Of a stretch of DNA of 64,000 nucleotides, positions 8,951-45,426 are shown one piece after another. This stretch comes from an uncultured Bacilli bacterium (GTDB lineage Bacteria > Bacillota_I > Bacilli_A > RF39 > UBA660). The DNA is taken from positions 1,504-65,503 of the forward strand of contig CAJTXY010000003.1 in assembly GCA_910583685.1 (NCBI GenBank), in the 5' to 3' direction. The translations under genes and the position numbers were made by a program. The notes below the pieces were generated by a model, which did no database searches, was not told the origin of the DNA, and saw nothing but the letters and a program-made list of their open reading frames with translations. Numbering within the stretch: the stretch's first letter is position 1; the number at the start of each line of letters is the position of its first letter.

Positions 8951-9445
8951 ATGGCAAGTGAGAAAATCTTAAAACAGAAGCAAGCTGTAATTGATGAGAT
9001 TAAAGGACACGTTGATAGTGCAAGTACTATTGTGTTGTTTGATTATCGTGGTATTACAGATAGTGAATCTAAAGAACTTCGTCGTAAGCTTCGTGAGACA
9101 AACTCTGACTATAAAGTATATAAAAATACTTTAATGGCTAGAGCGTTTAACGACTTAAGTATTGATCTTAACGATTCATTAAATGGTCCTAGTGCCTTTG
9201 CTTATGGTGAAGATCAAGTTGCACCAATTAAGGTTTTAACTGATTTTGCAAAGGAACACCAAGCATTAAAGTTGAAGGTTGGTATTATTGATGGAGAAGT
9301 GGCAGATCAAGCGAAGTTAAGCGAATATGCTGCATTACCATCAAGAGATGGACTACTTACTATGCTTGCTGGTTCTATGATTGGTCTTGTTAAGGACTTA
9401 TCTATCTGCTTAGATTTATATGCACAAGAAAAAGAAGAAAATTAA
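8951..9445 (+). CDS. rplJ: 50S ribosomal protein L10.
   Basis: The start at 8951 follows GAGGAGGTG. The N-terminus aligns with Bacillus L10. The ORF-track start at 8921 sits inside the terminator T-run. Confidence 0.85.
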   Translation: MASEKILKQKQAVIDEIKGHVDSASTIVLFDYRGITDSESKELRRKLRETNSDYKVYKNTLMARAFNDLSIDLNDSLNGPSAFAYGEDQVAPIKVLTDFAKEHQALKLKVGIIDGEVADQAKLSEYAALPSRDGLLTMLAGSMIGLVKDLSICLDLYAQEKEEN

Positions 9446-38149: not shown

Positions 38150-38495
38150 GGGGATGATATGGTTTCGACGGGAACATTTGACTAGTAGATGGCAAGTCGT
38201 AGGCTTACGTTACAAGCAAAATTAAATATAACTGGAAACAGTAATCAATTAGCTTTCGCTTAATAATTTAGGAAGCATCTTATCTTACTTTTCTCTACGG
38301 AGTAAGAATAGGATTCATTTTAGTAGAGTATATTCTAAATTTGTCTAAGATTTAGGATGAATTATATTAGACTAGTTTACTTTTTGAGTCGTTAACTACT
38401 TTGGAAGTAAGCGAATTTTTATTAGTTAACTAAGCTTGTAGAAGTTTACTTTGTCTGGTTTTCGGACAGGAGTTCGATTCTCCTCATCTCCACCA
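38150..38495 (+). ncRNA. ssrA: tmRNA (SsrA). The predicted tag peptide is AKLNITGNSNQLAFA followed by a double stop.
   Basis: GGGGAUG... 5' end and ...GGAGUUCGAUUCUCCUCAUCUCCACCA 3' tRNA-like end. The GCA resume codon and tag ORF end in TAATAA. Confidence 0.85.
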
Positions 38496-38539
38496 TTGAG
38501 TAATCTTTTCTAACTTTTGTTAGATTAGAACATATAGTA

Positions 38540-38566
38540 TCAACTTCAAAAGAAGTTGACTTTTTG
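38540..38566 (+). terminator. Intrinsic terminator after tmRNA.
   Basis: tcaacttc-aaaa-gaagttga followed by CTTTTTG. Confidence 0.6.
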
Positions 38567-38638: not shown

Positions 38639-40103
38639 ATGAAGTTATATATACAGGCAATTAAATTATTATTTAATAAGTTTATACTAAGAAGAAATAA
38701 TGGAATAATTATTAAGGATTTTTCTGAAAAAATGGGTGTAGTTTATATTAAATTGGCTCAAATGTTAGCAACTCAGAATTTTGGTAATTTGTTTACTGAA
38801 AAAGATAGACAGATATTATCAAGCATTTGTGATAATTGTAATCCTATTAGTTATGATGAAATTGAAGAAATATTAAAACAAGAGTATGGAACTAATTTGG
38901 AAAATATATTTAGGTTTATTGAGCATAAACCAGTTGGAGCTGCATCTGTGTCACAAGTGCATAGAGCAATACTTAAAACTGGTGAAGAAGTAGCAATAAA
39001 AATTAAAAGAAAAGATATTACAAGAACAATAGATGAAGATATAAAACGAATAAAAAAAATTGTGCATAGATTTGGTAGGTTTGTAAATTTTAGTAATTTT
39101 ACTGGGGGATCACGCATTAGATTTATATTTAGAGTGGATAGAACAAGAAACTGATTTTGCATATGAAAAAGAAAACATAAAAATATATCAAAATTTTGCA
39201 GATAGTGTTAATGGGAAAGTAAATGGTACTAAAAAAATTAAAGTTCCTAGATTATATGAAGAATATTGTACTGATAATGTAATTGTTATGGAATTTATAA
39301 CAATTCAAACTGTTAATAAAATGGAATTAACTGATGAAAATAAAACTAGGATTACTACTGCTTTAAATAGTTATATTAGGTCAAGTTTTTGGGCATTGTT
39401 TAATGATAAGCAAATAGTTTTTCATGGAGATCCGCATAGCGGGAATATTTGTATAGATGAAGACGACAATATTTGCTTTTTAGATATGGGACTATTATGT
39501 GCGTTAAGTGATAGTGATGCTAAACTATGTAGAAATTTCTTTTTAACAGTATACTCTGGAAATTACGAAAAATTGTATGATATGCTAGTTTCTTATGGAG
39601 ATATGAGCGAAGAAAAAAAGAAGTTATTTAAAGAAGATTGCAAGAAGTATTGTGAAGATATAAAGAAGAAAGAGGTTACTTATTATTTTATCGATATGGT
39701 CAATGTTTGTTTAAACTATGAATTTGTTCCTCCTAATTTTCTATTTAATATGGCTAAGGCGTTTTTTTGTTTAAATGGTATTAGTAATTTTTCCGATAAC
39801 AAATGTAGTGCAAGGGAATTATTACAAGATCAAACAATGGAGTTTTTAGTTAAAAGAAGTCTAAAAGATTGCAAAGGAATTGTAATAGATAGTCTACATA
39901 TTGCTCCAAAGGTATTAGAAGATATCTCACAATATGGGGTAGTCAATACTATTGCAAACGTAGCGGCTAGTAGTGAAATAAAAAGCGATATAAGACAATC
40001 CTTAGAAAATTTAAGGGAAATGATAGATTTAATTAAACTATCTTTTGGTGATGAAATCCCAGTACAGCCAGACCAAGCACAACAAAGAACAAAGCATTTG
40101 TAA
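38639..40103 (+). pseudogene. UbiB/ABC1 (AarF) atypical kinase gene broken by a +1 frameshift at a G5 tract (39104-39108). It is split into ORFs 38639-39154 and 39288-40103.
   Basis: Deleting one G restores a continuous reading ...FTGDHALDLYLEWIEQETDFAYEKENIKIYQNF...VPRLYEEYCTDNVIVMEFI..., which matches conserved ABC1 blocks. The two pieces together are about 490 aa. Confidence 0.65.
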
Positions 40104-40815: not shown

Positions 40816-41312
40816 GATTGTTTGTGGTACAAATTAGAAGTTATCAAGAGAGGGATAAATATGAATAAAAAAGAGTTTAAGAAAAAATGTAAACAAGAAA
40901 AAACTACAAGTTATAAATTAATGCTATTAGGAGAGGTAATATCTATAATAGGCTTAATCGTTGTTCTATTTACCACTTTTCATTATTAAAGATTTTATAC
41001 CACAAATTGTTTTGCTTGTAATCGGAGGAATAATTGCATTTATTGGAATGATATTAGATTTAATAGGAGAGATAATTTTAACTAAGAATTATAAAGAGTA
41101 TAATAAATAAAACTTAATGATGGAAAACTCTATAGATAATGTTAGAGGCTAAGCCTTAATACGTAGTTTCGAATGTAGTTTTCTATATCAAACAGATAGT
41201 AATCTCGGACTTTTAAAATTTATAGTTCGAGTTTTAATGTGGTATAATAAAAAAGAAAAAAGTATTAACCTAATAAGCTTTTTATGCTATACTATTTTTA
41301 TAAAACAAATAT

Positions 41313-41388
41313 GCCGATTTAGCTCAGTTGGTAGAGCAACGCCCTCGTAACGCGTAGGTCGAAGGTTCAAGTCCTTTAGTCGGCACCA
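41313..41388 (+). tRNA. tRNA-Thr (anticodon CGU).
   Basis: Cloverleaf: acceptor GCCGATT/AGTCGGC, D-arm GCTC/GAGC, anticodon loop CUCGUAA, T-arm GAAGG/CCTTT, CCA encoded. A TGgTATAAT extended -10 lies at 41240-41248. Confidence 0.85.
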
Positions 41389-41425
41389 GATTGATAGGAA
41401 ACTCGAACTTCGAGTAGCAATAGAA

Positions 41426-41450
41426 AACGACTTGTCAAAAAGTCGTTTTT
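41426..41450 (+). terminator. Intrinsic terminator after tRNA-Thr.
   Basis: aacgactt-gtcaaa-aagtcgtt followed by TTT. Confidence 0.6.
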
Positions 41451-41576
41451 ATGTTATTATGAATATGTCAAGGAAACTTGCATAAAATAAAAAAGGAACA
41501 TTCAATATGCCAGTGTTGAGTGTTGCCATTTAATTGGTTACCACCTAAATCATTGGATGAGTTAGGTGGATTTCTT

Positions 41577-41660
41577 TTATATTAAAGTTATGAATAACAA
41601 TAATAGTAAAAGGAAGATAATAATTACTAGAGCAAAGATTAGTAAATCTTTCTTGTTCAT
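41577..41660 (-). CDS. 27-aa hydrophobic peptide (MNKKDLLIFALVIIIFLLLLLLFITLI). Type I toxin-like or small membrane peptide candidate.
   Basis: RBS GGGAGG 7 nt upstream of the ATG. A minus-strand TTGTTA-17-TATAAT promoter lies at about 41713-41741. It is below the ORF-track size cut-off. Confidence 0.35.
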   Translation of the reverse strand: MNKKDLLIFALVIIIFLLLLLLFITLI

Positions 41661-41835
41661 TGTATCGCCTCCCTTCTTTATGAAGTTTGGCTCCACCCAA
41701 CTTATTAAATGTTCCTAAAATGATTATAGCAAACATTAGTTTTAGTAACAAGAATTTTTCTACTAAATTATGCCAATTTAGTAAACACACTTGTATATTG
41801 TCAAAAACAATATACTATACGATGAGGGATTATTT

Positions 41836-42639
41836 ATGAAATTAAAAGTATTAGAAGATAATAATACATTCATTGATATGTATTATTTAGCAGAACCAGG
41901 AGTAAGTTATTATATTGAAGATGGCAATGAAAAAATATTATTTGACACAGGATACTCAACTGTTATTATAGAAAATGCAAAGAAAATGAATATTAATTTG
42001 AATGATGTTAACAAATTAGTTATATCACATGGTCATGATGATCATACTGGTGGTTTAATACATTTTTTTGAAGAAAAAAGAACTATTGAGTTAATTGCTC
42101 ATCCAGAATGTTTTGATTATAAAGAAGACTCAACTGGCTTATATATTGGAAGTCCTTTATCTAAGGAAGAACTATCAAAAGTTTGTCAATTAAATTTATC
42201 TAAAAAACCAGTTCAAATTAGCGAACATATTACCTATTTAGGAGAGATTCCTATTTTGAATGATTTTGAACAGAGATATTCAATTGGAAAAAGTATTGTT
42301 AATGGAGAAAAAATTGATGATACAATAAACGATGATTCAGCAATTGTTTATAAAAGTGAAAAAGGTTTATTTGTTATAACAGGATGTTCTCATAGTGGAA
42401 TTTGCAATATAATAGAATACGCTAAAAAAGTTTGTAATGACGGTAGAATATATGGAGTTATTGGTGGATTTCATTTATTTGATGTAAATGAAAGGTTAGA
42501 AAAAACTATAGATTATTTAAAAGAAAATAATATCGAATTGTTATATCCATGTCATTGTGTATCTTTAAAAGCAAAAATACAAATGTCAAAAAAATTAGAT
42601 ATCAATGAAGTTGGTGTAGGATTAGAGTTAAATATTTAA
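41836..42639 (+). CDS. MBL-fold metallo-hydrolase.
   Basis: HGHDDHTGG (HxHxDH) motif. The ATG at 41836 follows GATGAGGGA. The ORF-track start at 41791 is probably too long. Confidence 0.75.
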   Translation: MKLKVLEDNNTFIDMYYLAEPGVSYYIEDGNEKILFDTGYSTVIIENAKKMNINLNDVNKLVISHGHDDHTGGLIHFFEEKRTIELIAHPECFDYKEDSTGLYIGSPLSKEELSKVCQLNLSKKPVQISEHITYLGEIPILNDFEQRYSIGKSIVNGEKIDDTINDDSAIVYKSEKGLFVITGCSHSGICNIIEYAKKVCNDGRIYGVIGGFHLFDVNERLEKTIDYLKENNIELLYPCHCVSLKAKIQMSKKLDINEVGVGLELNI

Positions 42640-42822
42640 AAAAGTTATTGTACGTCCTTCTTTAGGGCACCATTGAGGTTTCTGTTCGAACTTTTTCGGA
42701 CATTGATATATATAATATCAGTTAATGTGATTGGTATATTTTATTTCCACAGATAATTTTGTTATACTTGGCAAAATTCCTAGGGGTTAAATATTTTGCC
42801 AAAACAAAATATAGGGGGCTTT

Positions 42823-43425
42823 ATGGGAAAATATAAAATTGGTATGGGACAATATAGTAATGTTATTGAAATAGAAGCTTTTTATGAGTTTTTGTGTACT
42901 AGTTCTTTAGATGATTTAGAGGATATTAGAAAAATGTATATGTGTTATCATAACTTTGCTAATTGTTATATCTATACAATAGTTGAATATGAAGATAAGT
43001 ATAATTATAAAAATGAAAATGGTTGGTCTGATAGAGCTTTTTTAGAAAAAGAACGAAAAAAACGTGAATTAATGATAAGATTAACACATGATTGTTATCT
43101 TGCTATTTTACTTCATAAATTAGACTATGCTAATTATAAAAATATTATTAAAGGTTTGTATGGCTATTTTGAACATAGCGATGCTGAACTAAATCCTCCT
43201 TTACTCGATTATAAAACTAAAGAATATATATTAACAAAAGAACAATATATACAAGGTTTGATAAATGCTCAACATGAATCTACAAATGTAGGAGACTATT
43301 TACATACATCTTCTTTAGGTAGTATAATAGAAATCGAAAAAGAAATAATTAAACCTAATGAAAAAGTAAAATGTTTACGCTTAGATCAACAGATACATTA
43401 TGGTGACTTAAAGATATTTAAATAA
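42823..43425 (+). CDS. Hypothetical protein (orphan). The ORF track opens at 42796.
   Basis: ORF preceded by the AAAATATAGGGGG leader motif. No recognisable domain. Confidence 0.45.
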   Translation: MGKYKIGMGQYSNVIEIEAFYEFLCTSSLDDLEDIRKMYMCYHNFANCYIYTIVEYEDKYNYKNENGWSDRAFLEKERKKRELMIRLTHDCYLAILLHKLDYANYKNIIKGLYGYFEHSDAELNPPLLDYKTKEYILTKEQYIQGLINAQHESTNVGDYLHTSSLGSIIEIEKEIIKPNEKVKCLRLDQQIHYGDLKIFK

Positions 43426-44050
43426 AAAAGTTGTAAATAACTACGTCATTAGCACCATTAAGGTTAAAAGTCGCACTTTAGCGATTAGATATAAATAAAA
43501 TTGTTAATTTTAATAAAACTTTGATCCCATTTTTTGATACTTGTGTCAAAATATATAGGGAGTTAGGATTTGTGACCTTTATTTTGAACTATTAAAAATT
43601 TAATATTATACTGTGTTAGTATAATAATTGTTGTTGGTGTAAGATTGCATTAGTAAATGCACTGTTGGGATTCAGATAAAGGACTGGTCGAAGGTCCTTT
43701 TTATGATACTATGTATCTAGCAAGCGGTAATGTCTAGTTTCGAAGAGTTAGGTGCTATTTCAAAAGGATTTGTTTTAGTACTGTAGGTTGATGCTGTTTT
43801 TATTAGATAAAAACTACAATAGTAGGATTATGATAGTACAAAGATATTTCCTTTTTAAAGTTGAAGGAGAATAGTAGACAACAAACTAATTAAGTATTCC
43901 TAAAGAAATATAAATAATATAAACAAGCGAACATAACAGTATTTATGAGTTCGCCTATATTTTGACAAGATGTTCAAATATATAGGGGGCAACGTTATGG
44001 TAAAATATATTAGAAAAATAAGAAATACAATGTAGATAAGGAGGTAGTAT

Positions 44051-44641
44051 ATGAAAAATTATCAGCATACAATAACGGAAAATTCTCTGGAATGGATAAC
44101 TTATTATTCTAATATCAACTTTCCACAATTTACGCCTATTAATTATTATTTGTATAAATATAAAAACTTGTTTAGTCAATTTAATGTCCTAGGGTCTTTA
44201 ATAATAGCAGAAATCCTTCCTTTATTTGAAGATTATAATATTCCATTGGCGGGTAATGATTATTTGCTTTTTGTGAATCCTAGGGATAATATAGCAAATG
44301 GATTTGATATAGAAAAATACCAAAAGTTAGCAACAACAGAACCTTATTTATTAAGACAAAAGCAATATTGGGAAGAATGTGTTGAAGCTTTTGAATGGTT
44401 TGAAAGTCAACTTTTGTTATCCTCTATAGATGTAGATAGAATGATTCAAAAAGAAATTATGGAAAGATATGAATATGATTTTGATAAGGATGATTTAAAT
44501 GCTTATAATATATTTAGAAAATTTTTAAGTGAAACCCAAACTAATAAAGAGGATGAGACAAGGCAATTGTTTGAAAAAAATAGTGATATTACTTTACAAA
44601 AAAGAATGATGGAATATCAAAGAACTAGAATAGGGGAATGA
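44051..44641 (+). CDS. Hypothetical protein (orphan, 196 aa).
   Basis: RBS AAGGAGG. No recognisable domain. Confidence 0.5.
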   Translation: MKNYQHTITENSLEWITYYSNINFPQFTPINYYLYKYKNLFSQFNVLGSLIIAEILPLFEDYNIPLAGNDYLLFVNPRDNIANGFDIEKYQKLATTEPYLLRQKQYWEECVEAFEWFESQLLLSSIDVDRMIQKEIMERYEYDFDKDDLNAYNIFRKFLSETQTNKEDETRQLFEKNSDITLQKRMMEYQRTRIGE

Positions 44642-44997
44642 ATATACTTTTAGTTGTAGATCACTATCACTATTGTACTATGTGGTGCGGTTGGAATTAC
44701 AATAAAGAAACTCGAGTTTTTAAAAGGATAAGAATTCGAGTTTTAATATGTATGAATAAAAACTTGTTAATTAGAAAAATGGGGTATTGTTGCTGGTTTA
44801 TGGATTAAAAGTATTATATAAAATTAGATGGTAATCTACTGATGCCTTTAGAAGTAAATAATATTAATATAATTTATTTGAATCAGATCATTTATTGCTT
44901 TCAATTTGTTAGATCAATAGTGATTTAATAAGAAATGGATGCTTTTTTAGGTATAAAAAAAATTGTTTTTCACAAATTATAAGTAGGAGAGTGAAAA

Positions 44998-45426
44998 ATG
45001 GAAGAAAATATAAATGCTTTAGATGAAATCCATAAAGGTGCTTGTATGGGAATGGATGCTTTACATTTTGTTTCTGATAAAGTGGAAGATGATAAGTTAC
45101 GTGAGGAACTTAGAAAGCAGTATGATGATTATAAGAAAATTGCTAGTCATATAGAAGAGGTGTATCCTAAATATAATGATGGTCTTCCTCATAAGACTAC
45201 TACTATGAATAAAGCAATGACTTGGTATGGCATTTCTATGAAAACGTTTTCTGATAAGAGTACATCTAAGCTTGCTGAACTTTTACTAGAAGGAGTTAAT
45301 ATGGGAATTATTGAAGGTAGAAAAGTACTTAATAATAAAAATATGGATAAAGAGGTTCACAAAATTATTGATCAATATGTATCTATGCAAGAAAAAAGTG
45401 TTGAGGTTTTGAAAAAATATTTATAA
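44998..45426 (+). CDS. Hypothetical helical protein (142 aa).
   Basis: ORF with RBS AGGAGAG. Confidence 0.5.
   Translation: MEENINALDEIHKGACMGMDALHFVSDKVEDDKLREELRKQYDDYKKIASHIEEVYPKYNDGLPHKTTTMNKAMTWYGISMKTFSDKSTSKLAELLLEGVNMGIIEGRKVLNNKNMDKEVHKIIDQYVSMQEKSVEVLKKYL

Follow-up and report, generated by a model that had tools for sequence, protein, structure and literature searches.

A tandem array of small integrative units, each bounded by a sequence ending in CCA, probably occupies the segment from the tmRNA gene to about 44.7 kb of the window, that is, of the whole 64,000-nucleotide stretch of DNA from an uncultured Bacilli bacterium analysed here. The units in this window are most likely non-autonomous, partly decayed, CIME-like derivatives that accreted in tandem. 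The two orphan proteins encoded in the array are accessory cargo. Since their units are flanked by junction scars, the orphan genes represent the cargo of worn-down mobile elements in a decaying array rather than a new functional type of gene array. Coordinates are positions in the window, and features lie on the forward strand unless stated otherwise.

Composite junctions behind protein-coding genes

The sequence-only reading of this DNA had described a related element of about 75 nt directly behind two genes, one encoding a metallo-beta-lactamase-fold (MBL) hydrolase and the other an orphan gene starting at 42823. Both elements are found where they were claimed to be, element A at 42638–42718 and element B at 43424–43499, directly 3' of the stop codons of the MBL and 42823 genes. 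Their pairwise local score of 28 exceeds the maximum of 26 reached in 5000 dinucleotide shuffles. A scan of the whole window gives chance pairwise scores of 25–31, and for this reason the A/B pair alone is weak evidence. The decisive test was an nhmmer profile whose 19 source copies all came from other genomes, with the window left out. This profile matches element A (E=1e-7), element B (E=2.9e-6) and the tmRNA 3' end (E=3.6e-7), and the next-best match in the window reaches only E>5.

The 3' elements are composite recombination-type junctions, in which the right end of one unit is followed by CCA and then by the left end of the next unit. The right end is 31–33 nt long, begins at the stop codon and extends from AAAAGTTGTARATAAC to GCACCA. 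Left ends occur in two types: R1 comprises N10, TGTTCGAAC and a hairpin or terminator, and R2 reads GATTGATAGGAAACTCGAAC and onwards. The TGTTCGAAC motif starts at +11 in 39 of the 44 distinct sites, and GTTCRA starts at −24 in all 18 tRNA or tmRNA sites. Element A combines a type-1 right end of the MBL unit (AAAAGTTATTGTACGTCCTTCTTTAGGGCACCA, 42640–42672) with the R1 left end of the following unit (42673–42718), which has TGTTCGAAC at +11 and an 8-bp hairpin. Element B combines a type-2 right end (AAAAGTTGTAAATAACTACGTCATTAGCACCA, 43426–43457, E=0.0014), belonging to the 42823 unit itself, with a decayed R1 left end (43458–43499). The hairpins of the left ends could instead be ordinary terminators.

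An interpretation of these elements as gene-specific flanks or structured RNAs does not hold. Junctions of the same type are present at genuine tRNA and tmRNA 3' ends and, in relatives, between neighbouring units. Apart from itself, element A has its best match in the window at the tmRNA 3' junction. To the left of the junction, nothing but CACCA is common to A, B and the 3' ends of the tmRNA and tRNA-Thr genes, and the likeness lies to the right of CCA. The structure prediction recommended earlier returned ordinary folding energies (z −1.1 to −2.0): A and B form only short local hairpins (z −1.1 to −1.7), with no end-to-end pairing, and TGTTCGAAC is kept in sequence and position although its pairing partner varies. 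Rfam yielded no match in 42500–44900. A view of A and B as decayed 3' halves of tRNAs was dropped, because a non-tRNA unit, present at no fewer than 86 metagenome loci and not called by ARAGORN, has a 3' end that matches the left part of B. A literature search with the literal element sequence returned only Cas12a crRNAs, a coincidental likeness due to GUUGUAGAU.

The single-gene unit of the 42823 gene

Comparison of five genomes sets the limits of a single-gene unit of 785 bp at 42673–43457. Its parts are, in order, the R1 left end, a decayed terminator hairpin, a promoter, a 5' UTR, a ribosome-binding site, the coding sequence and the type-2 right end. The extended −10 promoter element TGTTATACT (42760–42768) and the GGCAAAAT/ATTTTGCC inverted repeat of the 5' UTR were both read off the alignment, and the ribosome-binding site is AGGGGG. 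The gene itself (42823–43425) encodes an orphan protein of 200 aa, for which a structure model predicts a long helical hairpin with a small alpha/beta part. This protein and the product of the second orphan gene, at 44051, were said to have no recognisable domains, and indeed neither is matched by Pfam, PADLOC or PHROGs. The immunity role that had been suggested by analogy is not indicated, with PADLOC and PHROGs both silent on these proteins.

In the five genomes, the 42823 gene is accompanied by its own left and right ends, its neighbours differ, and similarity falls to background at CCA. For instance, in L001, L004 and L008, identity amounts to 87–91% in the coding sequence and 76–88% in the unit's own right end, but to 36–52%, which equals background, in the next left end. 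Homologous copies are located at matching positions in L001, L004, L007 and L008. A type-1 right end stands upstream of the unit in three of the five genomes despite different upstream genes, and to account for this recurrence, one has to assume in addition that type 1 is a common type in general. The comparison with relatives also removes the possibility that the 42823 gene is a conserved single-copy core gene, as it forms 23 homologue clusters in varying contexts. A search of phage and plasmid collections with the unit by BLAST gave nothing useful. Exact-protein look-ups recovered only the same MAG and sample, and among these there was no excised circle, empty site or strain polymorphism of the window units.

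The probable array from the tmRNA gene to 44.7 kb

The array is anchored by the tmRNA gene ssrA (38150–38495), which is identified by Rfam (154.7 bits) and by ARAGORN and whose CCACCA end lies at 38495. At the tmRNA junction (38463–38540), the gene's T-arm, acceptor and CCA lead into a decayed left end of type R1, TTGAGTAATCTTTTCTAACTTTT, and a terminator hairpin. The cargo of the first unit behind it is an ABC1-type kinase (38639–40103), with the N-terminal and C-terminal halves of Pfam ABC1 on two separate ORFs (38639–39154 and 39288–40103); this split gene is possibly a pseudogene. Further downstream, decayed junction D (41165–41250) comprises a worn right-end remnant, identified by eye only, and an R2-type left end, for which an R2-only profile from other genomes gives a match at 41195–41243 (E=0.012). 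The hairpin region of this left end doubles as the extended −10 element (TGGTATAAT) of the tRNA-Thr(CGU) gene at 41313–41388. This gene is called by both Rfam and ARAGORN, and its CCA end acts as a junction (41357–41436), with the R2-type left end GATTGATAGGAAACTCGAAC directly after the tRNA 3' end. The R2 profile matches this tRNA 3' end at E=2.6e-13, and a terminator scan places an intrinsic terminator 3' of the junction, at 41423–41450.

The following unit (41389–42672) carries the MBL hydrolase (41836–42639; Pfam Lactamase_B, 7e-14) as its cargo. The hydrolase also shows a weak match to Anti-Pycsar_Apyc1. Over the whole window, Rfam detects the tmRNA, two tRNAs and an L10 leader, and nothing else. 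The G+C content of the array stretch is 26–29%.

Two features of CIMEs are present in the array: the junction ends of the family are kept (A, B, and the R1 and type-2 ends of the 42823 unit), and recombination and transfer genes are absent from the window. In particular, tblastn found no recombinase, MobV relaxase, 91-aa ORF or tyrosine integrase in the 64 kb, and Pfam found no recombination or transfer genes among the genes of the window units.

Leader motifs and decayed remnants

A leader motif had been reported to occur three times, and this observation stands: CAAAAWATATAGGGRG is found three times with at most two mismatches, against 0.28 occurrences expected, a number reached in 2 of 100 shuffles. 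The third copy, together with its ATG region, aligns with the leader and start of the 42823 gene at a score of 45 (z=9.5, 0 of 3000 shuffles), which makes it the best non-self match in the window. The second copy (43541–43573) is weaker when taken alone, its score of 28 being attained by 47 of 3000 shuffles, and it is collinear with a truncated copy of the 5' region of the 42823 unit. This decayed copy of a 42823-type unit (43458–43580) retains the left end, the spacer and the first leader motif, and in the collinear alignment it ends before the second motif and the ATG.

Next to it lies a decayed paralogue of segment 41410–41720, at 43584–43950, as revealed by direct repeats D3 and D7 and by a three-way alignment with L142. 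It holds a promoter-like site at 43584–43612, found by promoter scan, and a terminator-like hairpin at 43678–43705, and keeps a remnant of a small minus-strand ORF region. A possible pseudo-tRNA at 43627–43690 is suggested by an alignment, but ARAGORN and Rfam do not detect it, and it is not claimed here.

The leader of the 44051 gene (43956–44050), with the ribosome-binding site AGGAGG, is homologous to the leader and start of the 42823 gene. The 11-codon ORF noted in this region is present at 43997–44035, but it is not a conserved ORF, as the L142 homologue has no ATG there. Its interpretation as a truncated paralog has to be abandoned, because the region belongs, as a native and conserved leader, to the 44051 gene family, which also occurs in L142 and L147. 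The 44051 leader shares ancestry with the 42823 leader and is therefore not a recent local remnant. The gene itself (44051–44641) encodes an orphan protein of 196 aa. With just three homologue clusters, it is no conserved core gene either. The 42823 and 44051 proteins show no similarity to each other or to a 192-aa cassette protein of L007.

The 44051 gene is followed by element C (44648–44681), a decayed right end of type 2, TTTTAGTTGTAGATCACTATCACTATTGTACTA, whose CACCA is worn to TACTA. Positions 44652–44673 of this element agree in 21 of 22 bases with a right-end subtype from L004 and L130, and its pattern has no match in 100 shuffles. An R2-like flank after element C (44707–44753) is not significant (E=5.7).

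Related units in other genomes

The idea of modular, recombining units gains strength from relatives, in which units with other cargo form arrays behind tRNA or tmRNA genes. In related uncultured gut Bacilli, units with these ends and varied cargo are stacked head to tail. The array of L001 begins with tRNA-Leu and continues with GNAT, genes for 122- and 115-aa proteins, the 42823 homologue, and MGMT and Tag genes; in L007 and L125, tmRNA is followed by two units, and in L004, tRNA-Leu(CAA) is followed by the 42823 homologue. An insertion polymorphism was also found: a unit of 2.67 kb in L014 is positioned exactly between the CCA of tRNA-Arg and an R1 left end, and the same position is empty in L109. 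A 300-aa ORF of this insertion, considered as an integrase, is DUF7674.

In a human-gut clade, the right end lies inside a unit of about 70 nt that has its own promoter and resembles a small RNA gene. This RNA-like unit has no Rfam match in L037. Its interpretation as a riboswitch or leader was rejected, because the downstream genes are mutually unrelated and the upstream genes likewise.

Units of larger size that have the left and right ends of this family carry a gene for a large serine recombinase, and several of them also encode a MobV relaxase. By tblastn, the recombinase is present in 27 loci, MobV in 36 and an ORF of about 91 aa proximal to the left end in 34. The distance from the recombinase start to the junction is 592–685 nt in all seven loci (647 nt in L008). 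The recombinase of L008 (2871–4733) has Resolvase, Recombinase and Zn-ribbon domains; in L130 (6878–7843), Resolvase and Recombinase are clear and the Zn-ribbon match is weak, and a 642-aa protein of L060 contains Resolvase and Recombinase. Mob_Pre is located at 8993–9997 of L130. A scan of the units, which was not exhaustive, showed no VirB4 or coupling protein. The recombinase is less than 30% identical to plasmid-borne relatives. The association of serine recombinase and MobV with these ends leads to the conclusion that the full-size units are probably integrative mobilizable elements. A Phage_integrase gene is found about 350 nt past the CCA junction in L014 and L109, and the presence of such tyrosine-integrase elements at CCA ends means that the serine recombinase is not the sole candidate.

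Proposed mechanism and alternative explanations

In the proposed scheme, a unit would consist of a left end (R1 or R2), a promoter and leader of its own, a single cargo gene or a few, and a right end of 31–33 nt. The large serine recombinase would insert circular units at CCA. One half-site may be GTTCRA of the T-loop at −24 and the other TCGAAC, its inverse, at +14; the dyad would be centred on the CC of CCA. The sequence data place the crossover only at or near CCA. Every insertion would supply a new right end ending in CCA and hence a possible next docking site, so that arrays would grow head to tail. The units in the window would have moved, if at all, in trans or in cis, and elements C and D, the remnants at 43458–43950 and the split ABC1 gene would be the parts now decaying.

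A wider hypothesis is offered only tentatively and is, on balance, doubtful. It holds that a clade of serine recombinases uses the universal tRNA T-loop and CCA end as a palindromic att half and can dock 3' of nearly every tRNA or tmRNA gene. The elements of this clade would end in a CCA-terminated mimic of a tRNA end, which in the human-gut clade is the RNA-like unit of about 70 nt with its own promoter and no Rfam match, and would thereby renew the docking site. In gut Firmicutes, this would produce an array without a fixed limit, similar to an integron and made up of single-gene cassettes that bear promoters.

Classical islands at tRNA and tmRNA genes could alternatively account for the array, with A and B as att fragments displaced by successive integrations and deletions and the serine recombinase as a passenger. 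These genes are standard targets of tyrosine integrases (Islander, PMC4383910), and besides the Phage_integrase genes of L014 and L109, displaced genuine tRNA 3' fragments of 18–20 nt occur in L039 and L014; moreover, the GCACCA common to all junctions is as short as the overlap region of tyrosine recombinases. This explanation is nevertheless unlikely. The tyrosine-integrase elements have another left end (GAGTAGAGATTAGC) without the TGTTCGAAC motif, whereas left ends of types R1 and R2 and the right end AAAAGTTG occur together with the serine recombinase, MobV and the 91-aa ORF at fixed spacing. Beyond CACCA, the right ends in A and B contain no piece of the adjacent tRNA or tmRNA genes, and a displaced copy of 15–20 nt or more of the target's 3' part, the classical mark of a tDNA island, is found in neither. 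Distinctly improbable, too, is a model without site-specific mobility, in which the elements are modules at the level of RNA, for example a signal for 3' processing or termination common to tRNA, tmRNA and some mRNAs, and owe their spread to duplication and to homologous recombination between repeats. The precise 2.67-kb insertion polymorphism at a CCA argues against it, as do the tight linkage of the elements to recombinase and relaxase genes, the ordinary folding energies (z −1.1 to −2.0), and the constant sequence and position of TGTTCGAAC with a changing pairing partner. It does fit the start of the elements at stop codons, their co-orientation with genes, their hairpins, the T-rich terminator often seen in the left end, and the resemblance of the promoter-bearing right-end unit of about 70 nt to a small RNA gene.

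Compact single-gene cassettes with a recombination site abutting the stop codon, arranged head to tail in a single orientation, also recall an integron-like or single-strand (HUH, IS200/IS605-like) system, in which another recombinase would insert 3' of CACCA by means of end hairpins. Hairpins are indeed present at both ends, and the right end closes with the target's own pentanucleotide. It would be quite surprising if this were the case, as genes for IntI-type recombinases or HUH transposases did not appear among about 147 loci, where the serine recombinase recurs instead; furthermore, the cassettes have their own promoters, and a long imperfect palindrome like that of attC is absent. Chance similarity in AT-rich intergenic DNA, to which the G+C content of 26–29% and the chance occurrence of single pairwise scores of 25–31 might point, is hardly credible and already refuted by significant matches to profiles and patterns from other genomes only and by the homologous copies at matching positions in L001, L004, L007 and L008.

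Significance

If the proposed array model with docking at CCA is true, uncultured gut Bacilli and related Firmicutes would possess a form of cassette capture that works like an integron but is built from other parts, namely a serine recombinase and the CCA ends of RNA genes as self-renewing docks. It would explain the common conserved 'trailer' after many tRNA and tmRNA genes and the clustering of orphan genes there, and would provide an annotation rule for the limits of accessory units: right end, CCA, TGTTCGAAC at +11. Additionally, a recombinase that accepts many tRNA ends would be of interest for genome engineering.

Comparison with known systems

A closely similar layout is known from Dehalococcoides, where serine-recombinase islands are stacked behind ssrA; some of them lack integration genes and were interpreted as cis-mobilizable (PMC3146451). 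Like the units described here, these islands form tandem stacks immediately 3' of the tmRNA gene, repeats of the tmRNA 3' end delimit them, their cargo consists of accessory genes, and, as in the recombinase-bearing units of relatives, a serine recombinase gene adjoins the left junction. They differ in using ssrA as a single target, with a 20-bp repeat and insertion in the T-loop, whereas here many tRNA species and tmRNA serve as targets and the repeat is approximately the CCA end. The Dehalococcoides islands are also of phage-genome size, compared with units down to 0.74–0.8 kb and one gene here, and their six-gene integration module lies on the reverse strand, in contrast to the 91-aa ORF, recombinase and MobV on the forward strand.

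Tn4451/Tn4453 of Clostridia encode the large serine recombinase TnpX and the MobV-family protein TnpZ (PMC5704250). The recombinase-bearing units resemble them in their size of a few kb, in the order of large serine recombinase, Mob_Pre/MobV relaxase and cargo, and in very short flanking repeats, a likeness of layout. Integrative mobilizable elements with serine recombinases are usually found within dispensable genes or have low specificity (PMC5704250), unlike the RNA-gene 3' ends occupied here. The concept of accretion comes from CIMEs of the ICESt1/ICESt3 family (Pavlovic 2004 and Bellanger 2011, as cited in PMC5704250). CIMEs likewise lack a recombinase, keep their two att ends (attL and attR) and are piled next to the target. 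They can be moved by the recombinase of a related element, as may also hold for the units in the window; classical CIMEs are decayed ICEs or IMEs of several kb associated with tyrosine integrases. By comparison, the units described here look like purpose-sized single-gene cassettes with their own promoter and many different cargos.

In staphylococci, SCC elements use large serine recombinases (CcrAB/CcrC) at the 3' end of a conserved gene, rlmH/orfX, and their composite arrays include ccr-less pseudo-SCC elements between short repeats. SCC has one protein-gene target, extends over tens of kb and is unrelated to the tRNA T-loop and CCA. Integron cassettes share with the units described here a compact build, in which a gene is paired with a single site next to its stop codon, and an array of one orientation that grows at a docking site. 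The two systems differ in that the window contains no IntI tyrosine recombinase or attI/Pc platform and that A and B have no attC fold (R''/L''–L'/R' boxes); the units described here, unlike integron cassettes, have their own promoters, a terminator in the left end and an RNA gene as anchor.

Repeated elements behind the MBL and orphan genes

The sequence-only reading placed two related elements of about 75 nt behind neighbouring genes, and both are found at these positions: element A (42640-42715) directly follows the stop codon of the metallo-beta-lactamase-fold hydrolase (MBL) gene, and element B (43426-43500) that of a 200-aa orphan gene (orphan200, 42823-43425, plus strand). The A/B pairwise score exceeds all 5000 dinucleotide shuffles, but similar chance scores turn up in a window-wide scan, and the two copies by themselves are therefore weak evidence. 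What settles the matter is a profile made from 19 copies in other genomes only, with the window left out. This profile matches A (E=1e-7), B (E=2.9e-6) and the 3' end of the tmRNA gene (E=3.6e-7), with no further match below E=5, and the repeats are thus real.

Within the window, the sequence most similar to A, apart from A itself, is the extreme end of the tmRNA gene together with its downstream flank. Moreover, tmRNA, tRNA-Thr, A and B align without gaps once anchored on CACCA, and therefore each element consists of two halves. The right end (RE) comprises 31-33 nt left of CCA, begins 0-3 nt past the stop codon and occurs as type 1 (AAAAGTTGTTGNAYNTCYTTCYTTMGGRCACCA) or type 2 (AAAAGTTGTARATAACTWCNTCA..GCACCA). 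The left end (LE) lies to the right of CCA and is of two kinds: R1, with TGTTCGAAC at +11 from the CCA junction and a hairpin, often followed by a terminator, and R2 (GATTGATAGGAAACTCGAAC..TTCGAGTTTTAATATG). At many junctions a genuine tRNA or tmRNA gene stands in place of the RE.

Anatomy of the array in the window

The window belongs to a MAG of an uncultured gut Bacilli-type bacterium (GCA_949948905.1, contig CATLHO010000002.1) and has a low G+C content of 26-38%, lowest at 38.5-45 kb. According to the gene tables, the tmRNA gene (38150-38495) directly follows the genes for RNase R, a PGA_cap-family protein and SmpB; the tRNA-Thr(CGU) gene lies at 41313-41388, and elements A and B and both orphan genes are further downstream than either RNA gene. 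The first unit (38496 to about 41190) adjoins the tmRNA gene and contains a decayed R1 LE, a split ABC1-type kinase, an XRE-type membrane protein and a worn junction, D. The kinase is present as two ORFs, one (38639-39154) with the N-terminal half of the Pfam domain and the other (39288-40103) with the C-terminal half, and is probably a pseudogene. An R2 LE follows (LE part E=0.012 with a profile of R2 ends from other genomes); the extended -10 of tRNA-Thr comes from its hairpin region.

In the third unit (41389-42672), an R2 LE and its terminator are followed by a small ORF on the minus strand, then by the MBL gene and a type-1 RE. The MBL gene (41836-42639) has a weak precomputed match to Pfam Anti-Pycsar_Apyc1, an anti-defence enzyme family that degrades cyclic nucleotides; PADLOC gave only weak MBL-domain matches. 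The orphan200 unit (42673-43457) comes fourth. The last unit (43458-44681) is a three-part mosaic: it opens with a truncated duplicate of an orphan200-type LE with its leader, continues with a decayed paralogue of 41410-41720 and closes with a second orphan gene (196 aa, 44051-44641, plus strand) with a decayed type-2 RE (element C). A DUF2383 gene lies after the last array junction (44998-45426) and also 108 nt past a right-end CCA in an unrelated human-gut locus (L059); it may be further cargo or a gene that is conserved next to the original target.

Orphan genes and their leaders

As the sequence-only reading supposed, neither orphan protein has a recognisable domain, with no match in Pfam, PADLOC or PHROGs. 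The model of the 200-aa protein is a confident prediction (pLDDT 82.5, pTM 0.83) of a long helical hairpin with a small alpha/beta part. For this protein there are 23 homologue clusters (47-96% identity) in MAGs of uncultured Bacilli, Firmicutes and 'Tenericutes', against only three for the 44051 protein.

The proposed leader motif does occur three times in the window, against 0.28 expected. The third copy with the following ATG region finds its best non-self match in the window in the 42823 leader and start (z=9.5), and it had been taken for a truncated paralog. Since homologues of the 44051 gene in two other loci (L142 and L147) carry a leader of the same kind, this copy is instead the 44051 gene's own leader, ancestrally related to that of orphan200. 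Nor is the 11-codon ORF conserved as a peptide: the L142 leader has its sequence without the ATG. In L142, the 44051 homologue directly follows the tRNA-Thr trailer region, where the window has the MBL and orphan200 units.

The promoter of the 42823 gene has an extended -10 (TGTTATACT, 42760-42768), kept as TGnTAT.. in L001, L004 and L008, three loci of other genomes. In the 5' UTR (42770-42822, about 55 nt), GGCAAAAT and ATTTTGCC pair with each other and enclose a first AGGGG, a decoy, and the second motif copy just downstream bears the true ribosome-binding site. The motif is a tandem duplicate in the window, L004 and L008 and single in L001. This inverted repeat may be a translational control element; the stability predicted for its fold is unremarkable (z=-1.05).

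Discrete units in relatives

Orphan200 has a different neighbour in each of five genomes: in the window it adjoins the MBL gene, in L001 a 115-aa gene, in L004 a real tRNA-Leu(CAA), in L007 a 192-aa gene behind tmRNA and in L008 a NUDIX gene. In all five, an R1 LE precedes and a type-2 RE follows the gene. DNA identity to L001, L004 and L008 is 87-91% in the CDS, 76-88% in the RE and 36-52% straight after CCA, the background level of these alignments. Because identity drops to background right there while the stretch keeps its own LE and RE, sequence comparison marks the 785 bp at 42673-43457 as a discrete unit. The type-1 RE upstream of this unit recurs, which is explained only by assuming that type 1 is common.

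Arrays of similar units with other cargo were found: tRNA-Leu(CAG), GNAT, 122- and 115-aa genes, orphan200, and three MGMT genes with Tag in L001; tmRNA, a 192-aa gene and an orphan200 homologue in L007; and tmRNA with 191- and 183-aa genes in L125. A pattern scan yielded at least 120 metagenome loci, mostly from human gut, and over all loci 25 distinct LE-to-RE units of 0.74-6.3 kb were delimited. One clear insertion polymorphism was also seen: a 2.67-kb unit in L014 sits precisely between a tRNA-Arg CCA and an R1 LE, a junction that is uninterrupted in L109.

Mobility and the probable recombinase

Larger units keep a fixed order: after the LE come a small ORF (about 91 aa) and the gene for a large serine recombinase (Resolvase, Recombinase and Zn ribbon domains), often also a Mob_Pre/MobV relaxase, then cargo and finally the RE. 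By tblastn, the recombinase was found at 27 loci, the relaxase at 36 and the small ORF at 34, and the distance from the CCA/LE junction to the recombinase start is 592-685 nt in all six testable loci and 647 nt in L008 as well. This layout, the recombinase and relaxase loci and the constant distance mark the larger units as probable integrative mobilizable elements (IMEs). The window units have their ends, not their genes, in common with them, and tblastn over the 64 kb found no recombinase in the window.

The T-loop GTTCRA starts at -24 in 18/18 sites, and TGTTCGAAC, which contains its inverted copy, starts at +11 in 39/44, placing a dyad axis between both C of CCA. Such geometry fits a serine-recombinase att site, and we infer that crossover takes place at this axis, performed by this recombinase. 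The main rival is that tyrosine-integrase elements are responsible; they too occupy CCA ends in L014 and L109, with an LE different from R1 and R2. Such an element (L014 764-1681, L109 5861-6778) has a distinct left end with a GAGTAGAGATTAGC.. hairpin and is found inserted immediately past GCACCA, both at tRNA-Arg and at an RNA-like unit of about 70 nt. As for the serine recombinase, the ORF of about 91-94 aa (L008 2334-2609, L060; 34 loci in total) always lies between the left junction and the recombinase gene, has no match in Pfam or PHROGs and is kept even in minimal units (812 bp in L053); its product may set directionality or act as a regulator.

Tandem islands behind ssrA, partly gene-less and moved by a CcrB-like serine recombinase, are known from Dehalococcoides (PMC3146451), and IMEs with a serine recombinase and MobV relaxase (Tn4451), cis-mobilizable elements and accretion have been reviewed (PMC5704250). 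In the literature searched, no paper was found on serine-recombinase IMEs that, as the sequences here suggest, use the CCA ends of many tRNA species as docking sites, or on single-gene promoter-bearing derivatives, an absence that is not proof of novelty.

Further observations

The unit of about 70 nt is conserved in the human-gut clade (L037 11085-11208 and at least 86 other metagenome loci, e.g., L040, L035 and L100). It has its own strong promoter (TTGCAA-17-TGATATACT), a hairpin (GATTGATA/TATCAATC), GAGAGCC and AAAAAGTTGTAGATAACTACTTCGTTGGCACCA, highly variable flanks on both sides, and no Rfam match or ARAGORN call. Its final 31 nt are identical to the type-2 RE of the window cassettes. 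Two readings fit this unit: the right end of mobile elements, or a small RNA gene, multi-copy and so far undescribed, that is used as a docking site; in the latter case, the promoter-driven unit could be a chromosomal gene serving as target.

Unit or adjoining genes in the window's clade include the DNA-repair genes MGMT, Tag, Ada/AlkA and NUDIX. In human-gut loci (L072, L032, L099, L064 and L050), housekeeping-type genes lie within or beside units or right ends, namely those for arginyl- and tyrosyl-tRNA synthetases, peptide deformylase, 2-hydroxyacid dehydrogenase and nucleoside hydrolase; extra copies of drug-target enzymes on mobile units are worth a look. Finally, a prophage with a tyrosine integrase at tRNA-Gln (L001 12976-14282) comes right after the L001 cassette array, which shows that mobile DNA of other kinds also gathers in this neighbourhood, a general hot spot.
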